The notes: generated by a model from the sequence alone, not told the origin. A stretch of 64,000 bases of DNA from Candidatus Aenigmatarchaeota archaeon (GCA_018920365.1 JAHLMM010000001.1:274165-338164), one strand, 5' to 3'. Counted from the stretch's first letter, positions 7,106 through 57,636 are shown. Translations and numbers: made by a program.

Positions 7106-7107
7106 AA

Positions 7108-7506
7108 TTATTTTTTGCACAATGAGTTTATCAATTCTGTTACTTGATCTATTGCTTCTTGTTTGTCTATATTAATAGGAACTCCTATTATTGTAACTCT
7201 ATCAATCATATTTGTGTTTTTCATCAGTTTGAGTGTGTATGCCAAATCAAAATCATGCACTGAAAGTATTCTGTTCACTTCCAAAATGTCTATGTTCGTT
7301 ATCAATTCAACTTTGCTTATACCTTCAACTGAATCCAAAATATAGAGGTTTCTTCCTTCTTTTTGCAAATCCTCAACAGCGTCAAATTCCTTGAATTCTA
7401 TATTTGGAAATTTCTTTTGCAAGGTTGTTATTAATGATGGAGGCAAACTATCCTTTCTTACAAGAGGGTTGCCAAAGACTAGAATTTTTGTTATTTTCGT
7501 CATCAA
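7108..7506 (-). CDS. Hydrogenase maturation endopeptidase (HycI/HoxW-like)
   Basis: 132 aa, size and 'ILVFGNPL...' pattern typical of the family. It sits convergent and adjacent to the large-subunit gene. Confidence 0.65.
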   Translation of the reverse strand: MMTKITKILVFGNPLVRKDSLPPSLITTLQKKFPNIEFKEFDAVEDLQKEGRNLYILDSVEGISKVELITNIDILEVNRILSVHDFDLAYTLKLMKNTNMIDRVTIIGVPINIDKQEAIDQVTELINSLCKK

Positions 7507-9647: not shown

Positions 9648-9668
9648 AAAATTAGATTGTGAAATAAT

Positions 9669-11198
9669 CTAATTATATTTTACTTTCATTATTCTGTCTA
9701 GCCTAAAAGTTTTCAAATTTTTTGAATCATAACATAAGAGACCTTTGTATCTCTTTCCCATATAAACCATTTCGCCGACTTTGACGGGTTTTACAACTCT
9801 TTCTATGACTTGATCATTCTTTTTCAAATAAATTATTTTTATTTGCTTGTCATTTTTTATTGCATTTTCTATCATCAATATTATATCTTCATCCTTCTCA
9901 TTACCATAATTCATCCTTTTCAGTCTTGACACAAAATTGACAATCTTCCAGTCAACCATTACATCTTCCTTTCTTATAGGTTTCTTAAGAACAATTCCAT
10001 TTAAGCTTGTACATCTGCTTAATGCAACATATATTTGTCCATGGGCAAATGCACCGCTGCCAATATCTATTATCACTTTATCAAAAGTTTTTCCTTGACT
10101 TTTGTGTATTGTTATTGCCCACGCAGGTTTTATAGGATATTGAATAAAAGATCCAACAACTCTTGATTCTATTGATTGAGTTGAATCATCAAAAAATATG
10201 TCATATATGTTCCAAGTGTATGGTGTTATTTGAACTATTTTTTTATCTAAAAGCTCAATGCTTATTACATCATTGCCATCTTCGTTTCTTTCTATCTCAA
10301 CTATTTTTCCGATGCTGCCATTAATCCATCTTCCCAAATTGTCATTGTTTATGAGCATGACTTGAGACCCAATTTTTACTGCTAGTTCTTTTTCCAGAGG
10401 TAAATAACTTTCAGGAAAACTTCCTTTAACAATACCTTGATAATAATAAAAATTGCCTTTAATCTTGTCCATGTTTTCTTTGTTTATTTTGTCTGCAATC
10501 TCTTTTGTTGATGTCAAAATTATATAGAAATCATTGCTTTCAGGCTGAAAGTTAGGCAAATATCTCTTATTTATTTCTTTTAGCTGCTCATTTGTCAACG
10601 AATTATTTCTTACAGCATTCAGTATTTCTATGAATTTTTGATCTTTTTGTCTGTATATTTTTTCCAGTTCAACAAATTCAAATTCTAAATTTTCAAAGGC
10701 TTTTGCATCAAAAAAATAATGTGATTTGTAAAAACCCTTGAATATATTTTTTTCAAAATTTTTCACAACAGGCGGTAGTTGATATAAATCACCGAACAAT
10801 ATCATTTGTACTCCACCAAAAGGTTTATTTTTGTCTTTACCATTAATACGCATAAATTTGTCTATGCAATCGAGCAAATCAGCCCTGACCATTGATATTT
10901 CGTCTATCACTATTGCATCCAAATTTCTGTATATTTTAGAGTCTCTTGCTTTTTTCACTTTGCTTACTGTTATGTCAGGCCTAAATTTAAAGAATGAATG
11001 TATTGTGACTCCTTTGACATTTACAGCAGCAACACCGGTTGGCGCTAATACAACTATATTCTTTTTTGTGTTGTTTCTAAAATAGTCTAACAATGTTGAC
11101 TTGCCAGTGCCTGCCCTGCCCGTTATTAAAACATGAATGTCAGAATTTTCCATCAATTCGAACGCTTGCTTGAATTTTTCATTTATTTCGATCTTCAT
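9669..11198 (-). CDS. SF1 DNA helicase, Pif1/RecD-like
   Basis: Walker A 'GRAGTGKST' and DExx-like 'VIDEISMV'. The C-terminal barrel region resembles Pif1/RecD2. Confidence 0.6.
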   Translation of the reverse strand: MKIEINEKFKQAFELMENSDIHVLITGRAGTGKSTLLDYFRNNTKKNIVVLAPTGVAAVNVKGVTIHSFFKFRPDITVSKVKKARDSKIYRNLDAIVIDEISMVRADLLDCIDKFMRINGKDKNKPFGGVQMILFGDLYQLPPVVKNFEKNIFKGFYKSHYFFDAKAFENLEFEFVELEKIYRQKDQKFIEILNAVRNNSLTNEQLKEINKRYLPNFQPESNDFYIILTSTKEIADKINKENMDKIKGNFYYYQGIVKGSFPESYLPLEKELAVKIGSQVMLINNDNLGRWINGSIGKIVEIERNEDGNDVISIELLDKKIVQITPYTWNIYDIFFDDSTQSIESRVVGSFIQYPIKPAWAITIHKSQGKTFDKVIIDIGSGAFAHGQIYVALSRCTSLNGIVLKKPIRKEDVMVDWKIVNFVSRLKRMNYGNEKDEDIILMIENAIKNDKQIKIIYLKKNDQVIERVVKPVKVGEMVYMGKRYKGLLCYDSKNLKTFRLDRIMKVKYN

Positions 11199-11661
11199 TT
11201 AAAATCATCCTTCTGCTTTTAGGCAATATGTTTTCAATCTTTCCATTTTCTCTCAAAACACCACAACCAAAAAAATCGTTTTTATGCCTAACAATCACAA
11301 AATTATTTTCTTCGCAATTTTCACATTTGCAATAAACATCTTTTCCAGCAACATAACCATTTATGTCATCAATCTCAGCTATGTTTTTTGTTGCATCTTT
11401 TCCCAAAAGCATACTTCCTTCAATCGAAAGCTGTATTTTGTTGTTTCTTTTTATCTTACCAAAATACAAACCAATTGAATTCACCCTTTTTATATTTTTT
11501 AATTCAATTTTTGCAAGATTTCTTGAGCAAAGCCAAATTTTTTCATCAGCAGATATTATTACAACATAATCTCTTATTCTAAATTCACAGCCATAATTTT
11601 TTTTAATCAATTGTTCTATTTCTTTTGACTCTTTTGAGTTCAGTATTTTCTTAATTTGCAT
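11179..11661 (-). CDS. PUA/Nip7-like small RNA-binding protein (putative partner of the Nop2/Sun methyltransferase)
   Basis: 160 aa, overlapping the downstream Nop2/Sun gene. Size and genomic position fit archaeal Nip7-like proteins. The assignment is weak. Confidence 0.35.
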   Translation of the reverse strand: MQIKKILNSKESKEIEQLIKKNYGCEFRIRDYVVIISADEKIWLCSRNLAKIELKNIKRVNSIGLYFGKIKRNNKIQLSIEGSMLLGKDATKNIAEIDDINGYVAGKDVYCKCENCEENNFVIVRHKNDFFGCGVLRENGKIENILPKSRRMILNEDRNK

Positions 11662-12539
11662 ATGAAAAACCCCTCTGTCATGTTGTCAAACGGATTTATT
11701 CTAACAGCGTTTTTGACACTTGAATCATATTCTCGCTTTTCAAATACTGTTAAAGAATCTCGAGTTTTGATGTGATTCAATTTTATTTTCTCTGTCTTTA
11801 AATTAAGATTTTTGACAGCAAAATCTATAACTTCTTCATTTTCTTCAGGATCAATCGAACATGTGGAATATACTATAACACCACCTTCATTCAAACATTT
11901 ATATGCCGATTCCAAAAGCTGTTTTTGCAATCTACTTAGTTGATTGACCTTTCCCTGATTCCATGAACTGAAAACATTTGGATTGGAAATGCATGTTCCA
12001 GAAGAGCTGCAAGGAGCATCTAAAAGAATTTTATCAAAACTTACTTGCATGTTATGAATCCACCTACCATCCAAATTTGTTACAATTGCGTTTGCAACAC
12101 CACATTTTTGCAAATTGAATCTAAGAGCTGTTAATCTTTTCATATTAATGTCATTTGCCACTATCAAACCTTTGTTGTTCATTAAAGCCGCCATTTGGGT
12201 TGTTTTTGATCCTGGCGAGGCTGTCATATCTAACACCAATTCATTTTCTTTAGGATCCAAAACAATAGGCGGAATCATGCTTGCAGAATCCTGTATGTAA
12301 TAATACCCCAAAAAGTATTCTATGGTGTTTGTTATGTTTTCATTTGAAACAAAAAAACCATGGTCGCACCAAGGGATTTTTTCTATTTCAAAAAAGTTCA
12401 ACCTTTCAATCAATTCTTTTTTCGAAATTTTCAGCGTATTAACCCTAAAAGATTTTTTTAATTTCACAATTGTATTAAATTTATCAAAGCTTTCAGGATA
12501 AATTGTCCTTATTTTCGCCTCAAGCAATTTAGGAATCAT
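11640..12539 (-). CDS. RNA cytosine-C5 methyltransferase, NOL1/NOP2/Sun family
   Basis: SAM motif 'DMTASPGSKTT', catalytic 'DAPCSSSGT' and 'VYSTCS'. Confidence 0.8.
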   Translation of the reverse strand: MIPKLLEAKIRTIYPESFDKFNTIVKLKKSFRVNTLKISKKELIERLNFFEIEKIPWCDHGFFVSNENITNTIEYFLGYYYIQDSASMIPPIVLDPKENELVLDMTASPGSKTTQMAALMNNKGLIVANDINMKRLTALRFNLQKCGVANAIVTNLDGRWIHNMQVSFDKILLDAPCSSSGTCISNPNVFSSWNQGKVNQLSRLQKQLLESAYKCLNEGGVIVYSTCSIDPEENEEVIDFAVKNLNLKTEKIKLNHIKTRDSLTVFEKREYDSSVKNAVRINPFDNMTEGFFICKLRKY

Positions 12540-12566
12540 AAAGAATGAATTTATTTCACAAATATT

Positions 12567-13817
12567 TTAACTCTTCTTTTTTCTTTTAACCTTTTTCCCA
12601 ATTTTTAACCTCTTCATACTTTTTATGAATGATTTCAAATTTGGTTTTTTAGATACAGGCTTTATGTCATCCATCTTTTTCTGCTCATTCTCATATCCAA
12701 ACCATGGGTATATTTTGTCTCTTGTTGCCGCAAACTTTTCATCAAAAGGTTTTGGTGCATCTATTTTATCTTCTCTGAGCCAAACCGTTCTCTGCGGGAA
12801 TGGAATTCCTATACCCTCTTTATACAACCTTCTGTATATTTTGGTTATTGCTTCCTGATGAGCAGGCCATCTCTTGTCTATGTGATCAACCCAAAACATT
12901 ACTCTAAAGTTCAAAGAGCTTTCTCCCATTGCAAGGAATAAAACTCTTGCCTCCTTTTCCCTATCTATTATTTTCATTGTGTTTATTTCTTCCAAAACAA
13001 TTCTTTTCACATATTCAGGATCAGTGCCATATTCAACAGAAAAATCTATGTTTACCCTTACAGTTGGATCAGGCTGTAATAAATTTTGAATCTTAGCATT
13101 TGCCACTATGCTGTTTGGTATTATTATCATTTCATTGTCAAACGTTTTTATTCTAACAGCTCTGAGGGTTATAGAATAAATTTCACCCATTTCACCAGTG
13201 TCAAGTTTTACAATGTCACCAACTCTTATTGTCTTGTCCATTATCAATGCTATTCCTGCAAATATATTAGACAACGTCTGCTGTAATGCTAATGCAACTG
13301 CTATTCCTGCAATACCGAGGCTTGCAAGTATTGGGGATATTTCAACACCCCATATGCTTAGGGTGTAAAGCAACGCTATTACAATGAATGCAGCCTTCAA
13401 AGAACTGTGCGCAATGTTTAACAGAGTATCATCAACTTTTGTTTCGGTTTTTTCAGATGTCCTTCTACTAATTCTTATAAAAGTGACATCTATGAATGCA
13501 TATATTATGTATGCTATTGATAATGAAAACAATGTAAATATGACATGATTTATTGTTTCCAATGCGCTTTGTGTTAATGAAATCTCTCTTACTGCCAGGA
13601 AGACACTTGAAATAAATATCAGAACATTTATCGGAGTGTTCCATCTTTTTATAATTATGTCATCAACTTCTGTTTTTGTCTTTTCAGAAAATTTTCTGGC
13701 AAAAAACCTTATTGTTACAGCAAATGTTTTGAATATCAAGAGTGATACAAAGAAAATTACAAACGCTCTGATTATTTCGTTGCCTATTAATGGATCAAAA
13801 ATTTGATTCAGCATCAA
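12567..13817 (-). CDS. Mechanosensitive ion channel (MscS family)
   Basis: N-terminal TM helices followed by an MscS beta-domain ('IRVGDIVKLDTGEMGEIYSITLRAVRIKTFDNEMIIIPNS'). Confidence 0.75.
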   Translation of the reverse strand: MMLNQIFDPLIGNEIIRAFVIFFVSLLIFKTFAVTIRFFARKFSEKTKTEVDDIIIKRWNTPINVLIFISSVFLAVREISLTQSALETINHVIFTLFSLSIAYIIYAFIDVTFIRISRRTSEKTETKVDDTLLNIAHSSLKAAFIVIALLYTLSIWGVEISPILASLGIAGIAVALALQQTLSNIFAGIALIMDKTIRVGDIVKLDTGEMGEIYSITLRAVRIKTFDNEMIIIPNSIVANAKIQNLLQPDPTVRVNIDFSVEYGTDPEYVKRIVLEEINTMKIIDREKEARVLFLAMGESSLNFRVMFWVDHIDKRWPAHQEAITKIYRRLYKEGIGIPFPQRTVWLREDKIDAPKPFDEKFAATRDKIYPWFGYENEQKKMDDIKPVSKKPNLKSFIKSMKRLKIGKKVKRKKKS

Positions 13818-13860: not shown

Positions 13861-14138
13861 GCAAGAGGCGCGCTCTTGGTGGGAATAGCTTCAACAGCTA
13901 GAGTTTTCTGGTTCTTGTTCTCCACCTTGCTAACTCGCGAGCACAGGAGTGTATGCCTTATGGCTGCTCGGTTCCCCGCCTGACCAGGTTCAACATACAC
14001 ACTGTCCCGGGAGACAAGGCTTCTCAGTTCAAGAACCAGGTCTAGCCGCCAAAGCTAAGCCGCCCTTGAACTTCGATCCCGCCGTATACCGGGTTTGCGG
14101 CAACAGGGTACCGGTAGCACCCCGATCTAGCCTCTTGC
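13861..14138 (-). ncRNA. ffs: Signal recognition particle RNA (7S/SRP RNA)
   Basis: A roughly 55% GC island in an AT-rich genome. The minus strand contains the domain IV helix 8 motif 'GGUCAGGCGGGGAACCGAGCAGCCA' (compare bacterial 'GGUCAGGUCCGGAAGGAAGCAGCCA') with a GGAA tetraloop. A terminal helix (gcaagaggc...gcctcttgc) bounds a roughly 278-nt RNA. Confidence 0.8.
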
Positions 14139-20719: not shown

Positions 20720-21476
20720 AATTGTTTTTGTGAATAGCAAAAATTACACCATTGTCACCAAACTAATAAAAGAAATAAAACTAAGAAAATATTCGTATAA
20801 AACTGGGAAAAGATATATAGATATTGTCGTTAAATTTCCGAAATCAGGTAAAACATCAAAAGAATTTTTGTTATAAAGTTCAAAAAAGCAGATTCTACTA
20901 TGAGAATGTTCTAAATCAAAAATTTTATAAGAAAATACCATATTTAAAACCAAGATTAAAACTGCCAAAAGTTCTAAGAAAAGAAGACGTAACAAAAATG
21001 ATAGATGTTGTGAAAAATACAAAACATGAGCTATATTATCAGCGCTTTATTATACAGGTTTGCGTTTGAACGTTTGAGCAAAGAAACTTGAGGTGGGATG
21101 ATATAGATTTTCAGAGACATATTTCATATAAAGAAGGCTAAAGGTGACAAAGAATTGTTTTTTAGATGAGAAACTAAAACAATCGCTGAGGAATCTGGGA
21201 ACAAAACAATATGGGCTTGTATTTATCTAATCCAGAGGTGGAAAATATAGCAAAAGAACAATACAAAAAATATTGAAAGATGCTGCGAGAAAAGCAAACA
21301 TTTCAAAGAAAATAATACCAAATTCATTAAGACATTCTTTTGCTACTCATCTTTTAGAAGCAGGAGTTGATATAAGATATATACAGCAGCTTTTAGGACA
21401 TAAAAACCTTCAAACAACTCAAATCTACACTCATGTAGCAAACAAAGACATAAAAAGGCTTGCGAATGCTATTTAA
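20720..21476 (+). pseudogene. Tyrosine recombinase/integrase (XerC/D-like), degraded by multiple frameshifts and stops
   Basis: Integrase-like peptides appear in three different frames: 'ITPLSPN', 'ADSTMRMF', 'LRWDDIDFQ', 'YGLVF'. The ending '[37 protein letters not shown]' carries the R-H-R-Y catalytic region. ORF-track pieces 20824..21069 and 21273..21476 are fragments of it. Confidence 0.65.
21426..21475. repeat. Direct repeat DR1 (integrase 3' end), att-like
   Basis: The 38-nt 'tacactcatgtagcaaacaaagacataaaaaggcttgc' plus about 12 similar nt. It is repeated at 23667..23716. Confidence 0.6.
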
Positions 21477-21688: not shown

Positions 21689-22504
21689 ATGAAAACATTT
21701 TCAAAGAAAAATGAAATCAACATTAGTAAAATTACTGAAAAGCATATGAAAAATAATAATGTAAAAAAGTGGGAACCGGAGAATTTTGAACTTCAAACAA
21801 CAACAATATGGAGCTTTCCTAAAAGAGGCAATTGGGCAACTCATCGTGGAGACTATAGAGGCAATTGGGCACCAGAAATACCAAGGAACTTGATTTTAAG
21901 ATACTCAAAAAAAGGTGATATAGTTTTAGATCCTTTTGTAGGTTCTGGGACTACTATTATTGAGTGTAAATTGCTTGGAAGAAGAGGTATAGGTATTGAT
22001 ATAAATCCTGATGCGATAAAACTAGCTAAAAAAAGAATTGAATTTTCGAAATTGTTTGATGAACCTCAAGAATTGAGGGTTGGCGATGCAAGAGATTTAA
22101 GTTTTATAAAAAGCAACTCTATTGATTTAATTTGTGCGCATCCACCATATGCAGACGCTATACAATATACAGATGGAATAGAAGGCGATTTATCGTTTAT
22201 TAAAAATGTTGATGAATTTGTTAACGAGATAGGTAAAGTTGCTAAAGAATGTTACAGAGTATTAAAGCCTGGTAAATATTGTGGTGTCTTAATAGGAGAT
22301 ATAAGAAGAAAAAAACGCGTCATCCCTGTTGGATTCAAAGTTATGAACGAGTTTTTAAATGTTGGTTTTAATTTGAAAGAAATTATAATTAAACTTCAAC
22401 ATGAATGCAAAACTACGCCGTTGTGGGAGAAAAAATCTATAGAATATAATTTTTTACTTCTCGCGCATGAATATTTATTTGTTTTTGAAAAGTTAGAAAA
22501 ATGA
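21689..22504 (+). CDS. N6-adenine/N4-cytosine-type methyltransferase (DNA MTase, possibly RNA MTase-like architecture)
   Basis: 'HRGDYRGNWAPEIPRNLILRYSKKGDIVLDPFVGSGTT' (motif X-I) is followed by 'ICAHPPYAD' (motif IV). Confidence 0.6.
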   Translation: MKTFSKKNEINISKITEKHMKNNNVKKWEPENFELQTTTIWSFPKRGNWATHRGDYRGNWAPEIPRNLILRYSKKGDIVLDPFVGSGTTIIECKLLGRRGIGIDINPDAIKLAKKRIEFSKLFDEPQELRVGDARDLSFIKSNSIDLICAHPPYADAIQYTDGIEGDLSFIKNVDEFVNEIGKVAKECYRVLKPGKYCGVLIGDIRRKKRVIPVGFKVMNEFLNVGFNLKEIIIKLQHECKTTPLWEKKSIEYNFLLLAHEYLFVFEKLEK

Positions 22505-23447: not shown

Positions 23448-23666
23448 AATTTTCAACGATTTTGATTGTAATTATATATTTTTGAAGAAAATTTAGGTTT
23501 AACATATTATATTAATATTATTTTTTACGAGGTAAAATTTTAAGAAAAATCAAGTCTAGCTCAATATATATTCAACACCTAAGATACGAAAATGTAACTT
23601 ATTCAAGTGATGAATTTGTTGATATAATGGTATTTACTAGCGAAATAAACAAGATGTGTTCAATTA

Positions 23667-23716
23667 TACACTCATGTAGCAAACAAAGACATAAAAAGGC
23701 TTGCAAACGCCATTTA
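23667..23716. repeat. Direct repeat DR2, copy of integrase 3' end
   Basis: 38/38 identity to 21426..21463 and similar flanks. It is an isolated copy about 2.2 kb downstream of the integrase pseudogene. Confidence 0.6.
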
Positions 23717-23792
23717 AAAAATTTTCTAATGAATAGCAACTAAAACTTAAATACCTCAAAATTAGATATTAATCTTATCAGGTGATAAAAAC

Positions 23793-26928: not shown

Positions 26929-28953
26929 ATGGAAAGCAGGGAAATACTAGACGAATTTGTCGATTTTCTGAGAACAAATTATTACAGGGAATTGGCAGAC
27001 GTTTTTTCCAAAGGCGAGAGATCGATATTCATAGATTTTGCTCTGATAGATAAATACAAACCTGATTTAGCCGACTTGCTGCTTGAAAAACCTGAAGATA
27101 CATTGAAACTTTTTGAGGCTGCTGTCGAGCAGATTGATTTGCCTGAAAAGAGAAGCATAAAAATAAGGCTTTTTAATTTGCCTAAGAGCGCTGAAATTAG
27201 GATAAGGAATATAAGGTCAGAGCATTTAGGAAAGCTTTTATGTGTTGACGGCATTGTCAAAAGAGCGTCTGAAATTAGGCCTGAAGTTTCTGAAATAGTT
27301 TTTCAATGTGGCGAGTGCGGGGAGAAAATAGTTGTGCTTCAAACAGAAAAGGAAAAAACTCTTGTCTACCCTTCAATGTGTGATAATTGTAAATCAAAAA
27401 GAGGTTTTAAAGTTCTTGATCAAAAGTTGTATGATGCAAGATGGGTTGCAATCGAAGAGCCTTTTGAGATAACTACAGGTGAAAGGCCGTCAGAAATCAT
27501 GATTTATTTGAAAGAGGATTTGACATCGCCTAAAATGCAGTCAAAAACAGACCCAGGAAACAGAATCAAAGTCATAGGCATCTTGAAAGAATTGCCTAGA
27601 AGGACTTCAAAAGGAGGAAAGACAAGACAGATGGAGATATTGTTGGATGCTAACAATGTTGAATCGACTCAAATAGAATGGGAGGAACTTGTTATAAGCG
27701 AAGAAGAGGAAGCTCAAATAAAAGAGTTGGCAAAAGACCCGAAAATATATGATAAGCTTGTTTCATCTCTTGCTCCAAGCATGTATGGTTTGGATGTTGT
27801 AAAGCTTGCTATTGTTATGCAGTTCTTTGGCGGTGTTCCTAAGATTTTGAAGGATGGTACGAGAATAAGAGGTGATATACACATTCTGCTAGTCGGCGAT
27901 CCGGCTGTTGGTAAAAGTCAGTTGCTTAAGCTAGCTTCACAAATGATGCCTAGAGGTAAGTATGTTTCAGGTAAAGGCGTCACTGGCGCAGGTTTGACGG
28001 CAGCTGTTGTTAAAGATGAGCAGTTTTTAGGCGGATGGGTCTTGGAAGCAGGAGCTCTTGTGCTTGCGAACAATTCTATAATAGCAATAGACGAGTTTGA
28101 TAAAATGGAAAAAAGCGATCAGGTTGCTATGCACGAAGCAATGTCTCTGCAGCAAATATCAATAGCCAAAGCATCTATTGTTGCTACTCTACCTGCAAGG
28201 ACATCTGTTTTAGCTGGTGCTAATCCAAAATTAAGCAGATTTGACCAATACAAGCCAATAGGTGAGCAGGTGGACATACCTGAGACACTGTTAAGCAGGT
28301 TTGATGTCAAATTTGCTTTAAGAGATATACCAAATCCTGAGGTTGATGAAAAGATGATCGACCATCTTTTAATGTCGAGGCATTTCAATGAAGAGGAAAT
28401 GATGCCATTAATCAATTCAGATTTGCTGAAAAAATATGTTGCTTATGCAAAGATGCACTGCAATCCTATAATGACAAAAGAGGCGGCAAAGAAATTGAAG
28501 GATTTTTACATAGAGATGAGGAGCAAGTCATCTATATCAGGCGAGGTACAAGCTGTTGCTATAACAATGAGACAATATGAAGCTTTGGTTAGATTGGCAG
28601 AAGCAAGCGCTCGAGTTCAGTTGAGAGAGTTTGTGACGCCTGAAGATGCTGATCGGGCAATTGAGATAATGAAGTTTTCACTTAGACAGTTTGGTTTTGA
28701 TGAAAAGACAGGCACGTTTGATATTGATAAAGCAGAAGGTGGTGTAAGCAGTGCTCAAAGAAGCAAGATAAAGATTGTAACTGATATAATTGAGGAGCTT
28801 GAAAGAGAGATGCAGTCAAAATCAATACCTATTGACGATCTGAGAAAAAGAGCTCAAGAACAAGGCGTTGGCGATGTTGATAATATAATCAGAAAAATGA
28901 AAGAAGAAGGCATTGTCTTTGAGCCAAAGCACGGATTTATTCAGAGGATTTAG
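26929..28953 (+). CDS. mcm: MCM replicative helicase
   Basis: Zn-finger 'CGEC...CDNC', Walker A 'GDPAVGKSQ', Walker B 'IDEFDKM', and the arginine finger 'SRFD'. Confidence 0.9.
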   Translation: MESREILDEFVDFLRTNYYRELADVFSKGERSIFIDFALIDKYKPDLADLLLEKPEDTLKLFEAAVEQIDLPEKRSIKIRLFNLPKSAEIRIRNIRSEHLGKLLCVDGIVKRASEIRPEVSEIVFQCGECGEKIVVLQTEKEKTLVYPSMCDNCKSKRGFKVLDQKLYDARWVAIEEPFEITTGERPSEIMIYLKEDLTSPKMQSKTDPGNRIKVIGILKELPRRTSKGGKTRQMEILLDANNVESTQIEWEELVISEEEEAQIKELAKDPKIYDKLVSSLAPSMYGLDVVKLAIVMQFFGGVPKILKDGTRIRGDIHILLVGDPAVGKSQLLKLASQMMPRGKYVSGKGVTGAGLTAAVVKDEQFLGGWVLEAGALVLANNSIIAIDEFDKMEKSDQVAMHEAMSLQQISIAKASIVATLPARTSVLAGANPKLSRFDQYKPIGEQVDIPETLLSRFDVKFALRDIPNPEVDEKMIDHLLMSRHFNEEEMMPLINSDLLKKYVAYAKMHCNPIMTKEAAKKLKDFYIEMRSKSSISGEVQAVAITMRQYEALVRLAEASARVQLREFVTPEDADRAIEIMKFSLRQFGFDEKTGTFDIDKAEGGVSSAQRSKIKIVTDIIEELEREMQSKSIPIDDLRKRAQEQGVGDVDNIIRKMKEEGIVFEPKHGFIQRI

Positions 28954-29304
28954 GGACATAGATTTCAGATATAGGTGTTGTGATTAATATATTTTCTTTA
29001 AAAGCAAAAATCATTCTTGCTCCTTTTTCTGGTTCAGAAAGTTGTTTATTTGGATTATTGGGGTCAATGTATCCTTTCAAATTACCGTTATATTGGCTAG
29101 AACCATCATAAATTTCCCCTTCATTTGTTATTAAGTGTGTTTTGTGTTTGTACAACGTAAATGTAAGTTGACATACCAAATATTTTATCAAAAATATTAT
29201 TTAAACTTTTGTATATTTTACTACATAATAGTAATATATTTAACTATAAGCTCAAAACATACCAAAATTGAATTTTTATTAAATTTGCACAGTAATTTAA
29301 TTTT

Positions 29305-29895
29305 ATGATTCTAACAGCTGTGTTTTTGCTACTGCTTTCATTAATTTTCGCTCTATTAGAAATAGAGATTGAAGGAAAATATGGATGGGCAGAAAAAATT
29401 CCTACTTGGCATAAGAAATCGAAAATGTTTTCTTTTTTAGCTAGCAAAAAACCCCTTACAGGTTATCATTTTTTTATGTTGCTATTCCTTTTCATGCTCT
29501 TTCATTTTGTGTTTTTTGTTGGATTAAAATGGTCTTTATCTTTAGAGCTTAGAATAATCTCCTATTTTATTTTATTCCTAGTTATAGAAGATTTTTTATG
29601 GTTTGTTTTTAACCCTTATTATGGATTGAAAAAATTCAAAAAAGACAAGATCTGGTGGCATTATAACAGCAAATGGATCTTTAACTTAATCCCGCTAGAT
29701 TACATAATTGGTATTTTTCTAAGTATTCTGTTAATGTATTTTTCATCTGTTGCTTCAGAGAATTTACAAATTTTGTTTGAATTTTTATATTCTCTTTCAT
29801 TTATTCTTATTCTAATCTTAGCGATTTCAATTTTTTTACCAGCGCCCTACAAAAAATGGTATTATTTTATGAGAAAGAACAACAAAGAGAATTAA
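29305..29895 (+). CDS. Polytopic membrane protein, unknown function
   Basis: Five to six TM helices. No recognisable motif. Confidence 0.4.
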   Translation: MILTAVFLLLLSLIFALLEIEIEGKYGWAEKIPTWHKKSKMFSFLASKKPLTGYHFFMLLFLFMLFHFVFFVGLKWSLSLELRIISYFILFLVIEDFLWFVFNPYYGLKKFKKDKIWWHYNSKWIFNLIPLDYIIGIFLSILLMYFSSVASENLQILFEFLYSLSFILILILAISIFLPAPYKKWYYFMRKNNKEN

Positions 29896-29979
29896 TTTTT
29901 TTATAATATTAAAAAAATTGGCTATGCAATGAAAATACTTCAAATAAATTTAAATCTTCTCAACCCAATAAACTAATTC

Positions 29980-30603
29980 ATGAAAATTGGAATATTTGAC
30001 TGGTTTCTGGATACATTTGGATTAAGAAAGCCAATAAGGCTTGGTATATATGGTAGCGTTAACGTAGGAAAGACAACTCTAGCAAACAAAATAGCACTTG
30101 ATTGGACTGGCGAAGAGATAGGCTCAATTTCAGCAGTCCCACACGAAACAAGATTTGTTCAAAAAAAAGAAAAGGTTGAAATAAAACATGGCGGCAAAAA
30201 AATAACGATAAATTTACTTGACATGCCTGGCTTGGCAACAAAAATAGATTATAGAGATTTCTTGAAATATGGTATAAAGAGAAAGGAAGCAAAAGAGAGG
30301 GCAAAAGAAGCGACCCAAGGTGTTATAGAAGCTATAAAATGGTTGAATAATGTTGACACTGTCCTAGCTGTTATGGATGCAACAAAAGACCCTTTGACAC
30401 AGGTAAATGCTACACTTCTAGGAAATTTGGAGGCCAAAAACATCCCAGTTATAATAGTAATAAACAAGATTGATTTGAAAAACGCAAAGCCAGAAAACAT
30501 AAAGGAAATGTTCTCTCAATACCCATCTGTTGAAGTTTCTGCGTTGACAGGAAAGAATATTGATAAATTGTACGAGATGATTGCAAAATATGCGAGGAGA
30601 TAG
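29980..30603 (+). CDS. Small GTP-binding protein (Era/EngB-like)
   Basis: G1 'GSVNVGKTT', G3 'DMPG', G4 'NKID'. Confidence 0.65.
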   Translation: MKIGIFDWFLDTFGLRKPIRLGIYGSVNVGKTTLANKIALDWTGEEIGSISAVPHETRFVQKKEKVEIKHGGKKITINLLDMPGLATKIDYRDFLKYGIKRKEAKERAKEATQGVIEAIKWLNNVDTVLAVMDATKDPLTQVNATLLGNLEAKNIPVIIVINKIDLKNAKPENIKEMFSQYPSVEVSALTGKNIDKLYEMIAKYARR

Positions 30604-31018
30604 AATGAAAAAAATAAAGATGGACTTTATTTCTTCTGCTTCGCTTAGCGAGAAGGAGCCTGAGAAAAGGATAAACTTTATATTAAACAAGATTAAAGAT
30701 GGTTCTATACTTGTTATAGATGGTGTGTTAAAGCCGGAAGAGGAGATGAATTTGATAAGAGAAACCATGAGAAGGGTTGATGAGGGTTTTCCTGGAATAG
30801 AAGTATGCAGCCTCAAAAAACCTGGAAATTTTCTTACAAATCTGGTTGATAAATTTATGGATAGAAAAGAGGATATACAGAGAATGTTTGGCACATTGAC
30901 TGGCAATCCATCAATAACAACAAACTTGAGGACAGGGCTGACATTCATAGGCCCTGCAAAAGTTATAAAAAAGATAAAGAAAAATCCAGATTCTTTTTCT
31001 GTTTTGGCAGAGGTGTGA
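30581..31018 (+). CDS. Conserved hypothetical protein co-operonic with the GTPase
   Basis: Its start overlaps the end of the GTPase gene. No catalytic motif. The real start may be 'MKKIKMDF' near 30605. Confidence 0.4.
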   Translation: MQNMRGDRMKKIKMDFISSASLSEKEPEKRINFILNKIKDGSILVIDGVLKPEEEMNLIRETMRRVDEGFPGIEVCSLKKPGNFLTNLVDKFMDRKEDIQRMFGTLTGNPSITTNLRTGLTFIGPAKVIKKIKKNPDSFSVLAEV

Positions 31019-31022
31019 TTTT

Positions 31023-31397
31023 ATGTCGCATAAATGTCTTAGATGTGGGAAGCTATATGAAAATGACGATCCTCAAGTCATCAAAGGATGCACATGTGGC
31101 TCTATATTTTTCTTGTTCATAAAAGACAAGTCTGAAATGGAAAAGTTCCAGGAAATAGAAAGGAATTTAAAGCTAAATAGAACAAGTTTGGAAATGGAGT
31201 TGGAAAAGGAATTTATCAAGGCAGCTAATGAAGAGAACAGCTTTGGTGTTGAGACGATAAAAAATCCTATTGACGGTGTTTATGAAATAAATCTTGAAGC
31301 GTTGCTTAACAAACAACCTTTAGTAATTCTAAAGAACGGAAGGACATATATGATACACTTGCCTTCTGTTTTTGAAAAAGTAAAAGAAAGAGATTAA
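31023..31397 (+). CDS. Zn-ribbon protein
   Basis: 'CLRCG...CTCG' near the N-terminus. Third gene of the GTPase trio. Confidence 0.4.
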   Translation: MSHKCLRCGKLYENDDPQVIKGCTCGSIFFLFIKDKSEMEKFQEIERNLKLNRTSLEMELEKEFIKAANEENSFGVETIKNPIDGVYEINLEALLNKQPLVILKNGRTYMIHLPSVFEKVKERD

Positions 31398-31415: not shown

Positions 31416-31727
31416 CTAGCTTGTCAATCCATTTTCTGCTGTTATATTTTTTATCATTCCTGCATTAACTGCTTGAAAAACAATAATTGTTTTGTTTTTG
31501 GCTTGATTATAGAATAGCTGGCCTTGATAGCAATAGCACATATTGTCTTTCACAAAAGCATATTCTAGGTTTGCATATTCGCAAAACTGGCTGCAAAGTG
31601 AAACTTGAGTTTTTGGTTGATTTGTAAGCAATCCATGCACGAAATAACCTGCTGCAAAGAACACTATCAACAAAAGAAATCTAGCAACATCCTTTTTTCT
31701 TATTTTTATAAATTCATCTTCAGGCAT
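31416..31727 (-). CDS. Small Cys-rich membrane-anchored/secreted protein
   Basis: An N-terminal TM helix and six Cys ('CSQFCEY...CYCYQG'). Confidence 0.4.
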   Translation of the reverse strand: MPEDEFIKIRKKDVARFLLLIVFFAAGYFVHGLLTNQPKTQVSLCSQFCEYANLEYAFVKDNMCYCYQGQLFYNQAKNKTIIVFQAVNAGMIKNITAENGLTS

Positions 31728-31789
31728 GTAAATTATATAGAAAGTTAATTAAATAAGCTTTTTTATTAAATTTCCTGAATTATTATTTT

Positions 31790-32665
31790 ATGAGAATTTT
31801 TGTTGTATTGCTCATATTATTTGCATTTTTCATAATCATTAATTTAACAAGATCGCAAGAAATTTCTCTTTATTGCTATGTTACCAATTTTTGTGAATAT
31901 ACAGATGTGTTTCATATTTCTGATTTAACAGACGCACATGCAGAGATAAATAGTGAAAATAATTATGAATACAAAGTTTGTTGCAACTTGAACAATGGTT
32001 TTGATTTAAATGTTGTGCAGAGATCTTATGGTGGAATAATTGGGTTTTCTTATACGACAAATGCACATGCCGAGATAGGCAACAAATCAAATTATGAATA
32101 TATGATAGACATGATTCCAGAGCACGGTGATGTGTTCTGCACTTCTGCTTATTCTTGTGATGACTATAATACATGCCTAGTTTCAATATCAGGTGAGACA
32201 GACGCCCACTTAGGAGATTGCGTGACAAACCCATATCAATTGAAGATTTGCTGTTCTTATGGCAGTTTGGATATAAACATAAGCTCAAATGTCACGAGAC
32301 TCGAATATGGCAATGATTTCAAAATATATGGACATGCTACAAAAGCAGGTATACCATTAGAAAATTCTCATGTGAACATAAATGTAAACAATTTTGATTT
32401 TTGTGCAGCAATGACAAATTCAAATGGATATTATGAATGTTCTTTCAAATCACCTAAAAGAATAGGAAAAATAAATATAACAGCAACAATTACAGATGAA
32501 TCTAGTCTTAAAACAAAGTCTGCTTATACACAAATAGATACATATATTTCTTATGGCAGCAAAATTGAAAGGACTGATACAGTCTGTATAGAAAAACCTG
32601 CATTAATACAAAACGAAGATGGAAGTATTGATATAGTTACAGTAAATTTGTGTTTGTGGAAGTGA
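31790..32665 (+). CDS. Secreted Cys-rich protein with three 'AHAE/AHLG' repeats
   Basis: Signal peptide. Repeats are 'TDAHAEINSENNYEYKVCC', 'TNAHAEIGNKSNYEYMID' and 'TDAHLGDCVTNPYQLKICC'. Confidence 0.5.
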   Translation: MRIFVVLLILFAFFIIINLTRSQEISLYCYVTNFCEYTDVFHISDLTDAHAEINSENNYEYKVCCNLNNGFDLNVVQRSYGGIIGFSYTTNAHAEIGNKSNYEYMIDMIPEHGDVFCTSAYSCDDYNTCLVSISGETDAHLGDCVTNPYQLKICCSYGSLDINISSNVTRLEYGNDFKIYGHATKAGIPLENSHVNINVNNFDFCAAMTNSNGYYECSFKSPKRIGKINITATITDESSLKTKSAYTQIDTYISYGSKIERTDTVCIEKPALIQNEDGSIDIVTVNLCLWK

Positions 32666-32669
32666 AAAA

Positions 32670-33926
32670 ATGAATTGGATTGATTTTGCAATTTCTGGCA
32701 CAATATTCTTAGCTTTTATTGTAGTTGTCCTCATTCTAACAATAAATTATTTTTCAAACAAGATTTATGAAATTAGATCAAACGAAATATCCAAAGCATC
32801 AGAATCATATTTATCAAAAATCACAGATCAAGGTGTTAATGATGAGTGGGATTTGAGAAATCAGACTCCTGTTAGCTTTGGCCTTGGAAGAGATGTTTAC
32901 TTTATACCAATATTAGTAAATTCAACAACGAATAAAAGAAGTTACGATGTTTTAAGTATTGACTTGAATTTTGATTATTATTGCTCAAAAAAAATAAACA
33001 TTTCTTCTATACGTGTTTTGAATCAAACCTTTAATGAAGTGAATTATACGCTGATAAACAAAAATTTTTGTGATGACGGTATAAAAAATTCAACCATTGT
33101 GTTTTATGACAAACCAGGAAGTGAAAAAAAATATTTTGTATATTTTTCTCGCGAACCTTTGATTGAAAGAAATTACACACTTGATTATAATATGTCTTTG
33201 TATTTTGACTTTGATAGAGCAGAAAGCAATATAATTATGGATAAAACAGAAAATGGAAATGACGGATTTCTTACATCTGGTTTCCTTGACTATGGGAAGT
33301 TTGGCTATTCTGTAAATTTCAACAAACTTGGAATAATAAACATAAGTGAAAATAAAAATTTGAATTCTAGCATTATAAGCTTAGACTTTTGGGTAAAAAT
33401 TAATGAATATGATGACTCTAAAATAATTGAAAAGGCAAACTCTTATGGACTGAAGCTTGGGCCGGTTGGTCAAAATAATAGAATAATAGGCTATATTGAA
33501 GGTTTGCCAGAAAATTATCAGCCATATACACCTATTTTGAACCTTGATGAATGGTATCATATAGTATTTACTTCTGATGGTCATGTGCATTCAATTTATC
33601 TAAATGGTAATTTAGTGAATTCGACTAACTATGACATATCTTTGCCAACGCAAGAATCGTCAATGTCATTAGGAGGAGATTATAATCAGAATTATCTTTT
33701 TAATGGAAGTATTGATGAATTGAGAGTATACAGACATGTCATAACTAGTCAGGATGTTTTAAATTCAAATTCATCTGCTCCAAACCAAATAACTGTTTTT
33801 CCAGAAATGAATGATGTTATAATTTCATTCAATAAAATGAAATCTTTGAAAAATTTGGACTATGATTTTGTTAAAAAAACTTTTGGAGATAAATATAATT
33901 TTAGAATAGAGGTGTATAAAAATTAA
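32670..33926 (+). CDS. Surface protein with LamG/concanavalin-like domain
   Basis: An N-terminal TM/pilin-like helix. 'YHIVFTSDGHVHSIYLNGNLV...GSIDELRVYRHVITSQDV' is typical of LamG jelly-roll domains. Confidence 0.5.
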   Translation: MNWIDFAISGTIFLAFIVVVLILTINYFSNKIYEIRSNEISKASESYLSKITDQGVNDEWDLRNQTPVSFGLGRDVYFIPILVNSTTNKRSYDVLSIDLNFDYYCSKKINISSIRVLNQTFNEVNYTLINKNFCDDGIKNSTIVFYDKPGSEKKYFVYFSREPLIERNYTLDYNMSLYFDFDRAESNIIMDKTENGNDGFLTSGFLDYGKFGYSVNFNKLGIINISENKNLNSSIISLDFWVKINEYDDSKIIEKANSYGLKLGPVGQNNRIIGYIEGLPENYQPYTPILNLDEWYHIVFTSDGHVHSIYLNGNLVNSTNYDISLPTQESSMSLGGDYNQNYLFNGSIDELRVYRHVITSQDVLNSNSSAPNQITVFPEMNDVIISFNKMKSLKNLDYDFVKKTFGDKYNFRIEVYKN

Positions 33927-33939
33927 AGGACTATCTTTT

Positions 33940-34311
33940 TTGGTTGAGGTTTCAATATCAATTGTAATAATATCATTATTTCTCATAGTTTTTATGAATC
34001 AAAATTATGAAAGTCAAAATAGAATGCAAAAGAACAAAGATGAAGTGTTTTCTGTTTTGTTATCTTTGGAAAGAAAAAATGAATTGAGAGATATAATTTT
34101 TTCAAACAATGTGAATAAAATTAACCAAACTATATCAAGCTCTATTCCAAAGCTAAAAAGGTTTTATCCAGTTATATTTAATAAAACAACAAATGTGACT
34201 GTATTGCCTAATATAAATGATAAAAGAAATGTTGCAGTAATTGAATACTTAATATCAGGCGAGTATGGAAAATATGACCCAAGAATATTAAAAATATTTT
34301 TATGGGATTGA
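33940..34311 (+). CDS. Pilin-like small protein (N-terminal hydrophobic helix)
   Basis: An N-terminal helix 'VSISIVIISLFLIVF'. Part of a same-strand, overlapping gene cluster. Confidence 0.4.
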   Translation: MVEVSISIVIISLFLIVFMNQNYESQNRMQKNKDEVFSVLLSLERKNELRDIIFSNNVNKINQTISSSIPKLKRFYPVIFNKTTNVTVLPNINDKRNVAVIEYLISGEYGKYDPRILKIFLWD

Positions 34312-34312
34312 A

Positions 34313-34906
34313 ATGAAAAAAGGACAATTTTTCATAATATCTGCTGTTGTTGTAGTTTTAATTCTAACATTAATACAGATATCTATAAGAGAATACAATC
34401 AAGGAAGGCAGGGATATGATAAAAGCTATATTTTATATTATTTCAACGAGGTAAAAAGAGAAATACCAACATCATATTTTATTGATGGAAGTGGATCGAT
34501 TGAAAATTTTATTGATTTCAATAGTTTTGTAAGAAAAAGCGTTAATGAAAAAAATTTTTATTATGAATCTTTTTCAATTATTTTGTTTAATATTGACGAA
34601 TCACCAGATAAATTGAATTTGACAGCAGTAAACTTTCTAAAAGGTGATATATACGTCAATTTTACTTTGAATTCTACCCCAGTTCAACAATATGGAATGT
34701 TTGTCAAAAGCAACGATTATAATTCAACTGTTTTTAATGTTGACAGAAATCTTGATTATTATTTGGAATTGCAAGGAGATAGCAATTACACAATAAATTT
34801 GGATTTGAGCAATAAAAACTTGCATATAATTTTTTCAGAAATTCGGATAATCGGAAATAACATAGAGTATATTGATAAAGTCGAAAAACATATATTTTTG
34901 CAATGA
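34313..34906 (+). CDS. Type IV pilin-like protein (class III signal peptide candidate)
   Basis: 'MKKGQFFIISAVVVVLILTLI' has a KG-Q site resembling archaeal prepilin cleavage sites. Confidence 0.45.
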   Translation: MKKGQFFIISAVVVVLILTLIQISIREYNQGRQGYDKSYILYYFNEVKREIPTSYFIDGSGSIENFIDFNSFVRKSVNEKNFYYESFSIILFNIDESPDKLNLTAVNFLKGDIYVNFTLNSTPVQQYGMFVKSNDYNSTVFNVDRNLDYYLELQGDSNYTINLDLSNKNLHIIFSEIRIIGNNIEYIDKVEKHIFLQ

Positions 34907-35376
34907 AAGGATTAAATGAATTTATGACTTTGGGAATTATAGTTTTAATTTCTATAACACTGATAACAATTTCTATCAATTATATAAAACCGATAATAGA
35001 AAGATCTAATGATAATTTTGCTTTAAATGAAGGATTATCTAATCTGATCTTAATAAAAAATACTATAGAAGAAATTTCAAGTGAGAGTCAAGGTTCTTCA
35101 AGAACAATAAAATTAAGGTCATATTATGGCGTTTACATCTTCGATTCTTTGTCTGACACTATAAATTTTACACATGTAAAATCAAGCGACGTTAGTTTTT
35201 ATGGAAATAGAAACGGCATAAATGTAACTACATCTGGAAATGTAATTATGATTTTCACAAAAATAGATAATATAGATATAATGAATAGTCTTGTTTTTAC
35301 AAAAGGTGATAACATATTGAAAATTTCATACGACAGCTTTGACAACGGCTTGGTGAAAATAAATATAACATCATAA
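34903..35376 (+). CDS. Type IV pilin-like protein
   Basis: 'MKGLNEFMTLGIIVLISITLITI', with start/stop overlap to the upstream gene. Confidence 0.45.
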   Translation: MKGLNEFMTLGIIVLISITLITISINYIKPIIERSNDNFALNEGLSNLILIKNTIEEISSESQGSSRTIKLRSYYGVYIFDSLSDTINFTHVKSSDVSFYGNRNGINVTTSGNVIMIFTKIDNIDIMNSLVFTKGDNILKISYDSFDNGLVKINITS

Positions 35377-35420: not shown

Positions 35421-35555
35421 ATGGTTGTTTGGAAAAATATAAAATGCCCGAGATGTGGGAAACCAAATGAAAGAATTTCTTTGAAAAAGAGAAATGGATC
35501 TTGTATGTTTTGCGGATTTAAAATGGCTTCAAATATAAACGGATTTTTAAAGTAA
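35421..35555 (+). CDS. Small Zn-ribbon protein (44 aa)
   Basis: 'KCPRCGK...CMFCGF'. Not in the ORF track (under 60 aa). Confidence 0.3.
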   Translation: MVVWKNIKCPRCGKPNERISLKKRNGSCMFCGFKMASNINGFLK

Positions 35556-54651: not shown

Positions 54652-55623
54652 CTACCTTAAAAGCTGAATTAATTGGTTTATTTTTTCTTCTGCAACTTGA
54701 GGGTTTGTTTGCAAATTATTTTTAGCTTCAATTATTAGATTTTTCCATTGCAGGTTTTGCGCATAATGCTCCATTGTATCAAGTATGTCCAAAGCATGAT
54801 CAAAGTCACCATTTTTTATCATAATCTTTACATCCCTTGCATAATTTTTCATTAGGAATTTGGCTTGCATAGAGCCTCTTGCAATCCCCATAGCATGCTC
54901 AATAGGTCTCCATTTTTCAAAAACTCTGTTTATATATGCTAGCAAGCCTCCAAGAAATATTAGATCCAAAGCCACTAGGGCAATTCCCAATGTACCTATG
55001 CTCAATATTTCAAGCAGATTTGTTACAACAAAACCTCTGTAAGCTATTAGTCCCAAACAATAACCCACTATTTTTTGTGATTGCGGACGTTTTATTACGC
55101 CTGAAGAACTCACAAAGTCATAAAACAATGACATCAATAACAGCAATGGGACGACAACGCCAAAAACCCAGTAGCTTAGGAACGCAAAACCCCCATAGTT
55201 GCCTTTGTATTTATACCCAGTTATTACACACATGATACCTTCTGCTATGTTGTTTGCCCCACCTGTACTGCATTTCACAGTCATTGGTGTTGCTAAAGCT
55301 GCTCTTGATTTCATAACATATGACATTTGAATGATCAGAAAGCCGACTATTATGACACCCAAGCCGATATAGGATAGAGTTTTACCTGTTCTGAGATGAC
55401 TGCCGGCTATGATTATTCCAAATAATATCAGAAATGAACCTATTGCTATAAGCATTATAGAAGTGATGACATTTGTTATATATTCTAACACAAAATCTAT
55501 AAAACCTGGTATTGCTACAGCCGTAACAACCAGAGTAGCGAAAACAATTGTTAAAAGAAAGAATATAGAAATCCAGTCAGCACCTTTTGAACCAAAAACC
55601 ATACTATTATATTCTAAATTCAT
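54652..55623 (-). CDS. Polytopic membrane protein, paralog family member 1 of 4
   Basis: Shares 'SSGVI...AYRGFVVT...IALVALDLIFLGGLLAY' with the three upstream paralogs. It has an extracytoplasmic Cys pair, 'CSTGGANNIAEGIMC'. Confidence 0.55.
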   Translation of the reverse strand: MNLEYNSMVFGSKGADWISIFFLLTIVFATLVVTAVAIPGFIDFVLEYITNVITSIMLIAIGSFLILFGIIIAGSHLRTGKTLSYIGLGVIIVGFLIIQMSYVMKSRAALATPMTVKCSTGGANNIAEGIMCVITGYKYKGNYGGFAFLSYWVFGVVVPLLLLMSLFYDFVSSSGVIKRPQSQKIVGYCLGLIAYRGFVVTNLLEILSIGTLGIALVALDLIFLGGLLAYINRVFEKWRPIEHAMGIARGSMQAKFLMKNYARDVKIMIKNGDFDHALDILDTMEHYAQNLQWKNLIIEAKNNLQTNPQVAEEKINQLIQLLR

Positions 55624-55634
55624 ACTATTATTTT

Positions 55635-56597: not shown

Positions 56598-56630
56598 TAT
56601 TTAATAAAATGGTTTTTTAAATTTTAAACA

Positions 56631-57602: not shown

Positions 57603-57636
57603 AATGAATTATTATACACTTTTAAATTAATATTTG

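Follow-up and report, generated by a model that had tools for sequence, protein, structure and literature searches.

What could unite five tightly packed genes of an archaeon when, among the six proteins of their locus, Pfam and NCBIfam scans find LamG as the only family and no pilin model? The question is raised by positions 31416-35376 of a 64,000-nucleotide stretch of a Candidatus Aenigmatarchaeota genome (GCA_018920365.1, JAHLMM010000001.1:274165-338164), the whole of which is referred to below as the window. A preliminary description had read the operon as coding for a type IV pilus-type appendage, made of pilin-like subunits and bearing a lectin-like adhesin. This reading is supported by the class III signal peptide layout of the small proteins, by the linkage of homologous genes to assembly machinery in two distant relatives (contigs L008 and L015) and by the LamG domain that travels with the set. 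We consider it probable (roughly 0.7) that the operon supplies an archaeal type IV filament with accessory minor pilins and an adhesin, the assembly machinery being encoded elsewhere and used in trans. Systems of this type have been described before and would be expected in DPANN archaea; the separate protein families carry no annotation.

All six open reading frames (ORFs) of the locus were recovered with the coordinates first given for them, and the five genes on the plus strand (31790-35376) are as tightly packed as originally described, with junctions consisting, in order, of a 4-nt gap, a 13-nt gap (a 5-nt overlap if the third gene starts at ATT, see below), a 1-nt gap and a 4-nt overlap. 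The three AHAE-type repeats of the first protein and the LamG domain of the second, both also put forward at the outset, hold up as well, on the evidence detailed below. The features of the locus are:

31416-31727, minus strand: 103-aa membrane protein with a basic cytoplasmic N-terminus, one transmembrane helix and a small extracellular domain (from the ORF)
31755-31768, no strand assigned: candidate B recognition element (BRE)/TATA element AAGCTTTTTTATTA (from conservation in the divergent spacer)
31790-32665, plus strand: 291-aa Sec-secreted, Cys-rich "AHAE" protein (from the ORF, signal peptide and repeats)
32670-33926, plus strand: 418-aa modular pilin-like LamG protein (from the ORF and PF13385)
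33922-34311, plus strand: p123-family pilin-like protein, 123 aa from TTG 33940 or ~129 aa from ATT 33922 (from the orthologue alignment)
34313-34906, plus strand: p197-family pilin-like protein, 197 aa (from the ORF and orthologues)
34903-35376, plus strand: p157-family pilin-like protein, 157 aa (from the ORF and orthologues)

The first evidence for pilin identity comes from the N-termini. A class III leader, i.e., a short, basic segment in which K/R is followed by G/A, is seen in p197 (MKKG/Q, the slash marking the predicted cleavage site), p157 (MKG/L) and p123 ((M)KG/L). About 20 uncharged or hydrophobic residues come after the cleavage site, or at the N-terminus, in four proteins of the operon, i.e., these three and the LamG protein, which we count as a fourth pilin-like protein since it too has a conserved hydrophobic N-terminal helix. 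A single buried acidic residue is found in p123 (Glu at +6, invariant), p157 (Glu at +3) and the LamG protein (Asp/Glu at positions 4-6). Among homologues of the small families the K-(G/A) pair is fixed and the length of the leader varies from 2 to 15 aa. With leaders of varying length that all close with K-G/A and run straight into the hydrophobic segment, the N-termini have the predicted layout of class III signal peptides that are cleaved, which differs from that of Sec signals and plain anchors. A regular expression of our own for a loose class III pattern (not equivalent to FlaFind or PilFind) picks out 4 of the 88 non-overlapping window ORFs, two of them being adjacent genes of this operon. 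N-glycosylation sequons are found at 2.45 per 100 aa in the five operon proteins vs 0.34 in the remainder of the window, and several of them are invariant (FNKTTNVT, NLT, NST, NFT).

The preliminary description had listed all three small proteins as prepilin-like, and for p197 and p157 this stands; p123, read from TTG 33940, begins with "MVEVSISI" and has no pilin-like motif. The frame immediately upstream reads I-K-G-L-S-F-L-V-E, collinear with M-K-G-I-N-F-M-I-E in the orthologues, and comparison of ATT-AAA-GGA in the window with ATT-AAG-GGT in the closest relative (L010) reveals that the K and G codons differ synonymously. Moreover, the protein read from the ATT aligns over its full length with the product of a 131-aa gene in L008 (E = 4e-20). 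Given this collinearity, the synonymous codons and the end-to-end alignment, the start is most likely a non-canonical ATT at 33922, overlapping the stop codon of the LamG gene (33922-33926), and the predicted N-terminus is (M)KG/LSFLVEVSISIVIISLFL. Leaders elsewhere in the family (MKG, MISGLRFMRSKG, ...KKGG) vary, and a Glu six residues past the K-G is invariant.

The N-terminus of p197, MKKG/QFFIISAVVVVLILTL (MKKGQFFIIS), with Gln at +1, is conserved in its orthologues. An exhaustive search returned ~15 relatives of similar length, in whose alignment K is invariant and is followed by G/A, a nearly invariant Q and a hydrophobic stretch, the leaders being 2-15 residues long (MK, MEVK, MRNK, MGLQSVLKSRK, MNKLYIKFKNTRKK). 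We take this KGQ motif to be of the Epd/EppA type. Two relatives, P0054 and P0055, are modular versions with inserts of 150-350 aa in the head domain, P0055 having repeats of the type DSNDKVHISHYN...LRYCNNTLGYWTC.

The p157 N-terminus, MKG/LNEFMTLGIIVLISITL (MKGLNEFMTLG), is likewise conserved in orthologues. Its family comprises 21 clusters, all from Aenigmatarchaeota or unlabelled metagenomes and none with a Pfam domain, and the near-invariant MKGL.E is replaced by MKTLKG and MREKG in two members. The AlphaFold model of p157 (pLDDT 93) consists of a 58-residue N-terminal helix and a beta head. The family is, judged by profile comparison, a remote relative of Pfam DUF7289 (PF23960, threshold 27 bits): its L015 member scores 30.1 bits, those of L008 and L006 remain below threshold (17.4 and 14.9), and the link to the window protein is transitive only, via hhalign (99.9%). 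Homologues of the LamG protein and of p123 give weak N-terminal matches to DUF7287 and DUF7288, the order of the genes being the same; a literature search returned no papers on DUF7287, DUF7288 or DUF7289.

The second line of evidence is the company that these genes keep in L008 and L015. The former, a 13.5-kb contig from ENA, starts with a T2SSF gene cut by the contig end, a second T2SSF gene and two convergent canonical pilins (MKG/LSPLIAAVILIAV, with a Pilin_N match below threshold, and ...KKG/ISPFIASVFLIAF). These are followed by a 194-aa pilin-like gene and by four genes of 430 aa (MNYIDFTIAV), 131 aa (MKGQMYTLEAAIAV), 205 aa (MKKGQIFLIA) and 158 aa, which are homologous, in this order, to the LamG protein (E = 6e-19), p123 (E-value as above), p197 (found by exhaustive search) and p157 (hhalign, as above). 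L015 is a 44-kb metagenome contig, archaeal judging by its diphthamide synthase gene. Its cluster is complete and encodes a 601-aa ATPase (PF00437, 5e-29; 412 bits on the NCBIfam FlaI model, under the 550-bit cut-off), a platform split between two genes, one corresponding to the N-terminal and one to the C-terminal half of FlaJ, and two pilins that score above the TIGR02537 threshold; next are a p194-like protein, a 231-aa homologue of the big LamG protein, p123, p197, a protein with three LamG domains and p157. The ordered gene set thus directly follows platform genes (in L015, also an ATPase) and canonical pilins in both contigs, and this linkage supports the pilus reading. A 44-aa Zn-ribbon ORF downstream of the window operon (35421-35555) shares 66% identity with the C-terminal end of the gene that comes next in L008 (6064-6876), an endonuclease V-Zn-ribbon ORF in the same position. 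Since this gene is shared 3' of the operon, the two loci are orthologous, with the detachment from the machinery having occurred on the 5' side; the endonuclease V gene was possibly split or lost in the window.

The third line of evidence concerns the adhesin. The LamG module of the 418-aa protein (PF13385, Laminin_G_3; residues 226-363, 33345-33758) scores 80.7 bits vs a threshold of 27.6 (E = 1.6e-22) and is annotated on all orthologues. By sequence, its closest relatives among solved structures are the sugar-binding module of an arabinanase (5hon, 7.6e-8) and pentraxins, and the protein carries 13 N-glycosylation sequons. It begins, without a leader, with MNWIDF and ~20 hydrophobic residues, after which comes a conserved N-proximal domain. 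In orthologues, which are 41-58% identical, M1, N2, W3 and F6 are invariant (consensus MNW-h-(D/E)-F), and the pattern M-x(1-4)-h-[DE]-[FL] recurs at the N-terminus of the big protein in 10 loci. Homologues are the 430-aa protein of L008 and counterparts in L006, L013 and L015. The lack of a leader, together with the conserved acidic residue close to the N-terminus, makes this big subunit an unusual variant. Across the module LamG is fused to the big protein (window, L013), absent, or carried by a separate secreted protein. The last configuration is seen in L015, where a giant protein of 1,558 aa (8380-13056) has a Sec signal and three LamG domains (5e-66). As the 231-aa big homologue there lacks LamG and the triple-LamG protein lies within the operon, the lectin function is apparently supplied in trans.

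The window encodes a further candidate partner, the AHAE protein, whose (D/N)AH domain would be recruited in trans. A Sec-type signal peptide (aa 1-23) is followed by a three-fold repeat domain of the form (D/N)AH...NY.Y...CC (aa 27-158, 31868-32263), a putative invasin/Big-like immunoglobulin (Ig)-like domain (aa ~160-255, 32267-32554) and a C-terminal disulfide module, C-E-P..IQN.DGSID..C-W-K (aa ~256-291, 32555-32662). The repeats are well separated from chance (first vs second, z = 10.7; first vs third, z = 6.5; none of 2000 shuffles as high for either), and all nine family members have three [DN]AH motifs and 14 Cys (15 in one member). The model of the repeat domain is of low confidence (pLDDT 50-70), with strands roughly 4+4+4; it is compatible with a pseudo-threefold, beta-trefoil-like domain, for which there is no supporting match, and the family profile found no relatives among PDB sequences. 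In L003, the first gene encodes only 159 aa: signal peptide, Ig-like half and C-terminal module are kept and the entire repeat domain is gone, from which we conclude that this domain is a dispensable add-on. The last ~50 residues match a C-terminal extension of the big pilin-like protein of L008 (hhalign 95.6%, E = 1.3e-8), i.e., the module C-E-P...C-W-K is part of a separate protein in the window and fused in cis to the big protein in L008. Such a fusion suggests that the AHAE protein and the big subunit work together physically. Both the (D/N)AH repeat domain and the docking module appear to be undescribed so far. The possibility that the AHAE protein is a homologue of the p194-like pilin whose slot it occupies in L008 was rejected, the sequences being unrelated. 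One AHAE homologue, P0033, is labelled "Fervidobacterium sp." (1.5-kb contig); it probably comes from a fragment of an Aenigmatarchaeota genome placed in the wrong bin, and not from a bacterium.

Finally, the genes of the locus are real, as judged by the conservation of the block as a unit in at least six diverged Aenigmatarchaeota loci. The six-gene block is shared by L001, L003, L010, L011 and L017, each time adjoining MCM/OapABC genes, and a profile search of genome contigs with a narrow alignment recovered it from one additional species.

Several observations weigh against a pilus. No window protein matches Pilin_N (PF07790) or TIGR02537 in Pfam/NCBIfam searches at E <= 1, and the residues at +2/+3 (F, N) depart from the hexamer that FlaFind expects. 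DUF7289 is matched neither by p157 of the window nor by 19 of its relatives (a 20-member alignment, each sequence scanned singly). The LamG protein has no recognisable cleavage site (MNWIDF, no K/R-G leader). A lollipop-type model was obtained for one of the four pilin-like proteins (p157), and a Foldseek search of the PDB with it returned insignificant matches to Ig V-domains only, matches to pilins being weak; profiles of the p157, p197 and p123 families found no relatives among the sequences of solved structures. By hhalign the three small families show no relationship past the N-terminus, so they are not recent paralogues. Of the two findings that the preliminary description regarded as damaging when taken together, ordinary Sec signals or anchors were not seen at the N-termini; as to a genome-wide lack of assembly genes, neither the 64-kb window nor the 10 kb past its 3' end encodes an ATPase, a platform, a prepilin peptidase or a canonical major pilin, in a search that combined Pfam scans of nearly all window ORFs >= 110 aa, a six-frame regular expression for PilA-type N-termini (none in any of the six window frames) and the 10-kb extension. 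A class III peptidase was not seen near the L008 or L015 gene sets either.

Do these observations favour something other than a pilus? The rival that fares best is a short pseudopilus or bindosome-like envelope platform that would show the LamG lectin and its Cys-rich partner for the capture of substrates or host glycans, similar to the Sulfolobus bindosome or a type II secretion pseudopilus. The type IV machinery would process the pilin-like proteins and build from them a stub that does not leave the envelope. Pilin-likeness and linkage to machinery fit it equally well, the window contains no major pilin, in L015 the ATPase and platform score 210 and 56 bits on the BasE and BasF models, and type IV filament (TFF) platforms are reported to display substrate-binding proteins (preprint 10.64898/2026.04.22.720090). 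These scores, however, fall far short of 1000 and 1300 bits, the respective cut-offs, the operon has neither an ABC transporter nor a solute-binding protein linked to it, and the two canonical PilA/UpsA-like pilins beside the module in L008 and L015 suggest a real filament. We thus regard such a platform as unlikely, although it deserves to be kept in mind.

Improbable, in our view, is that these are ordinary surface proteins held by uncleaved signal anchors, i.e., a membrane-bound lectin complex without a type IV link. The lack of pilin hidden Markov model matches, of nearby assembly genes and of a leader on the LamG protein would be in keeping with this, as would the weak structural matches. 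On the other hand, a fixed K-G/A behind leaders of varying length is unexpected for plain anchors, the continuous 58-residue helix predicted for p157, running into a beta head, is a pilin architecture, and the ordered gene set is embedded in complete TFF clusters of relatives.

Accessory parts of an archaellum-like apparatus for motility, e.g., stator or envelope-anchoring proteins similar to FlaF and FlaG, are more improbable still. FlaF and FlaG also combine an N-terminal helix with a beta sandwich, and the fact that the linked ATPase and platform of the relatives have their best scores with the FlaI and FlaJ models (in L015, the ATPase with FlaI and the platform halves with FlaJ) could be taken in the same sense. 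FlaG/FlaI/FlaJ "archaellum" genes have been reported in Aenigmarchaeota (PMC8407114). Matches to FlaH, FlaF/G or archaellins were found in none of L015, L008 and the window, which do not qualify as archaellum loci. The four minor-pilin-like proteins also resemble GspH-I-J-K, as would befit a type II secretion-like pseudopilus with the Cys-rich AHAE protein as its cargo. Even though GspK is a modular pilin (PMC8179133) and a secreted protein is co-encoded, we give this last option hardly any credit, as with a single membrane and a Sec signal on the AHAE protein no second translocation step is needed, and as its C-terminal module, being joined to the big protein in L008, suggests stable association, not release.

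How, then, might an accessory module of a type IV filament work? The ATPase, a split FlaJ/TadC platform, a prepilin peptidase and the major pilin would be supplied from elsewhere in the genome. A class III signal peptidase of the PibD/EppA type would remove the K-G leaders of p123, p197 and p157, and the hydrophobic half of a p157-type helix would pack in the filament core with the major pilin. The 418-aa protein, too bulky for the filament body, could be a modular subunit at the tip or an assembly-priming cap, its LamG domain binding a carbohydrate ligand. The AHAE protein may dock on this big subunit via its C-terminal module and contribute another binding domain, exchangeable and carried by an Ig-like stalk. 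In view of the DPANN lifestyle the target could be a glycan on the surface of a host cell, and equally any surface or polymer. The precise architecture, i.e., a leaderless LamG cap with three processed small pilins beneath and the Cys-rich protein docked via its C-terminal module, is a tentative proposal, and we hold it with distinctly less confidence than the pilus reading as such.

Comparison with known systems places the module in a familiar setting. In archaea, type IV pilus loci encode five or more predicted minor pilins along with adhesins and, often, a pair of tadC-like genes, and some ATPase/TadC modules use pilin sets encoded in trans (PMC4858521). A recent study defines as "System 1" those loci of methanogens, Thermococcales and DPANN that combine an ATPase with a platform encoded by two genes; in other systems it notes adhesin-like proteins as well as pilin-like proteins that lack class III motifs (preprint 10.64898/2026.04.22.720090). 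In Aenigmarchaeota, FlaI/FlaJ genes occur in most metagenome-assembled genomes (MAGs), and type IV pili in those of thermal habitats (PMC8407114). The plan of L008 and L015 fits the Epd pilus of Methanococcus maripaludis ("System 1"/clade 1; MMP0233/0236/0237) and the euryarchaeal clade 2. With these loci they share a split platform, PilA-like pilins, at least five further class III-type small proteins and adhesin-like proteins; a FlaI/PilB-type ATPase (L015) and the K-G-Q motif of p197 are further points in common, as is the ability of pilin sets to act in trans. The L008/L015 system could belong to either clade. The window proteins match none of the named Epd/Pil minor-pilin families in sequence, and the big subunit has no class III leader; unlike in Epd and clade 2 loci, the module in this clade is detached from the machinery and stands beside MCM/OapABC.

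Bacterial systems offer analogies. PF13385 is among the commonest modules grafted on bacterial modular pilins, and PilC of Streptococcus sanguinis consists of a pilin and a ConA-like lectin (PMC8179133). The LamG protein shares with these a pilin-type helix bearing a grafted LamG/ConA-like module, for which a position at the tip is expected from its bulk (PMC8179133), but it lacks the IPR012902 prepilin motif and a leader and has an extra conserved domain between helix and LamG. The comparison is thus one of analogy, with no detectable homology outside LamG. Four dissimilar pilin-like proteins, one of them large, are also the pattern of FimU-PilVWX with PilY1 in Pseudomonas aeruginosa, of GspH-I-J-K in type II secretion and of CofB with CofJ in enterotoxigenic Escherichia coli. 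Like CofB-CofJ and minor pilins with PilY1 (PMC8179133), the operon adds a Sec-secreted, non-pilin partner, tied to the large subunit by a domain fusion in a relative. Unlike in the bacterial tip complexes, to which there is no homology, stoichiometry, order and docking are deduced only. The notion of an archaeal counterpart of the bacterial minor-pilin tip complex, in which a leaderless cap (Asp/Glu near the Glu5 site) carries interchangeable adhesins and serves Aenigmatarchaeota as a host-recognition device, is accordingly speculative and, as a whole, unlikely to be correct in every part. With TafC of Haloarcula hispanica (PMC11821415) the LamG protein has in common a LamG-like region in a fimbrial subunit; the route of secretion and assembly is different. 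An identity with TafC/Tat fimbriae was considered and rejected, the match to NF052521 (26.1 bits vs a cut-off of 410; E = 4e-6) being confined to the LamG region; the N-terminus MNWIDFAISG has no RR motif and thus no twin-arginine signal.

The surroundings of the operon are archaeal (archaeal signal recognition particle RNA at 13862-14137; G+C ~31%), and a Candidatus Aenigmatarchaeota MAG (GCA_038999715.1) encodes a protein with 100% identity to the LamG protein. Upstream lie an MCM gene and a GTPase/OapB/OapC "origin-associated" operon, downstream a major facilitator superfamily transporter. All close relatives show synteny in the upstream region (26929-31397: MCM, a 196-aa membrane protein and the GTPase/OapB/OapC operon), which may have a replication origin nearby (none identified). 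The small Cys-rich gene between this region and the operon, which encodes the 103-aa membrane protein, had been described as convergent with the operon. This was incorrect: the two are head-to-head, i.e., divergent across a 62-bp spacer, and the gene is convergent solely with the upstream OapC gene. Its product has four invariant Cys in the extracellular domain and a weak WSC match below the Pfam threshold (E = 0.0065). Orthologues occupy the same position in L001, L003, L010, L011 and L017 and are absent from L008 and L015; an association with the operon is possible. Within the spacer, AAGCTTTTTTATTA is near-invariant across six orthologous loci despite proteins that are merely 42-68% identical. 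Its distance is 22-35 nt to ATG 31790, which it precedes, and 28-41 nt to the opposite start, 31727, and its conservation makes it a candidate BRE/TATA promoter for the operon, possibly shared with the divergent 103-aa gene.

Elsewhere in the window, a 58-nt direct repeat (21419-21476 and 23660-23717, 91% identical) surrounds a 2.2-kb AT-rich segment with an N6/N4 DNA methylase (21689-22504) and a 181-aa ORF; the repeats may be att sites of a small integrated element. An IS200/Y1 transposase is found at 2182-2640 and is probably multi-copy, given that the NCBI contig JAVZBP010000005.1 breaks precisely at this element. NiFe-hydrogenase small- and large-subunit-like genes with a weak HycI-like protease (5353-7506) are noteworthy for a reduced DPANN genome. 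Four tandem paralogous multi-pass membrane proteins on the minus strand (54652-58710; ~320-357 aa, no Pfam match) have C..ITGY and AYRGF(V/I)VT motifs in common, and their C-terminal tails resemble coiled coils. A 124-nt tRNA (61490-61613, minus strand), recognised by Rfam and missed by ARAGORN, probably contains an intron.

What does the operon mean for these archaea? DPANN lineages such as the Aenigmatarchaeota are mostly uncultured and thought to depend on contact with a host; the molecules of this contact are largely unknown, and the operon provides concrete, clade-conserved candidates. Much is known about the minor pilins and tip complexes of bacteria and very little about those of archaea; the ordered set of four genes, followed here from Aenigmatarchaeota into more distant archaeal contigs, and the domain fusion lead to testable predictions on how archaeal pili are primed and acquire their functions. 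The analysis also assigns a probable role to several unannotated protein families, possibly including Pfam DUF7289.

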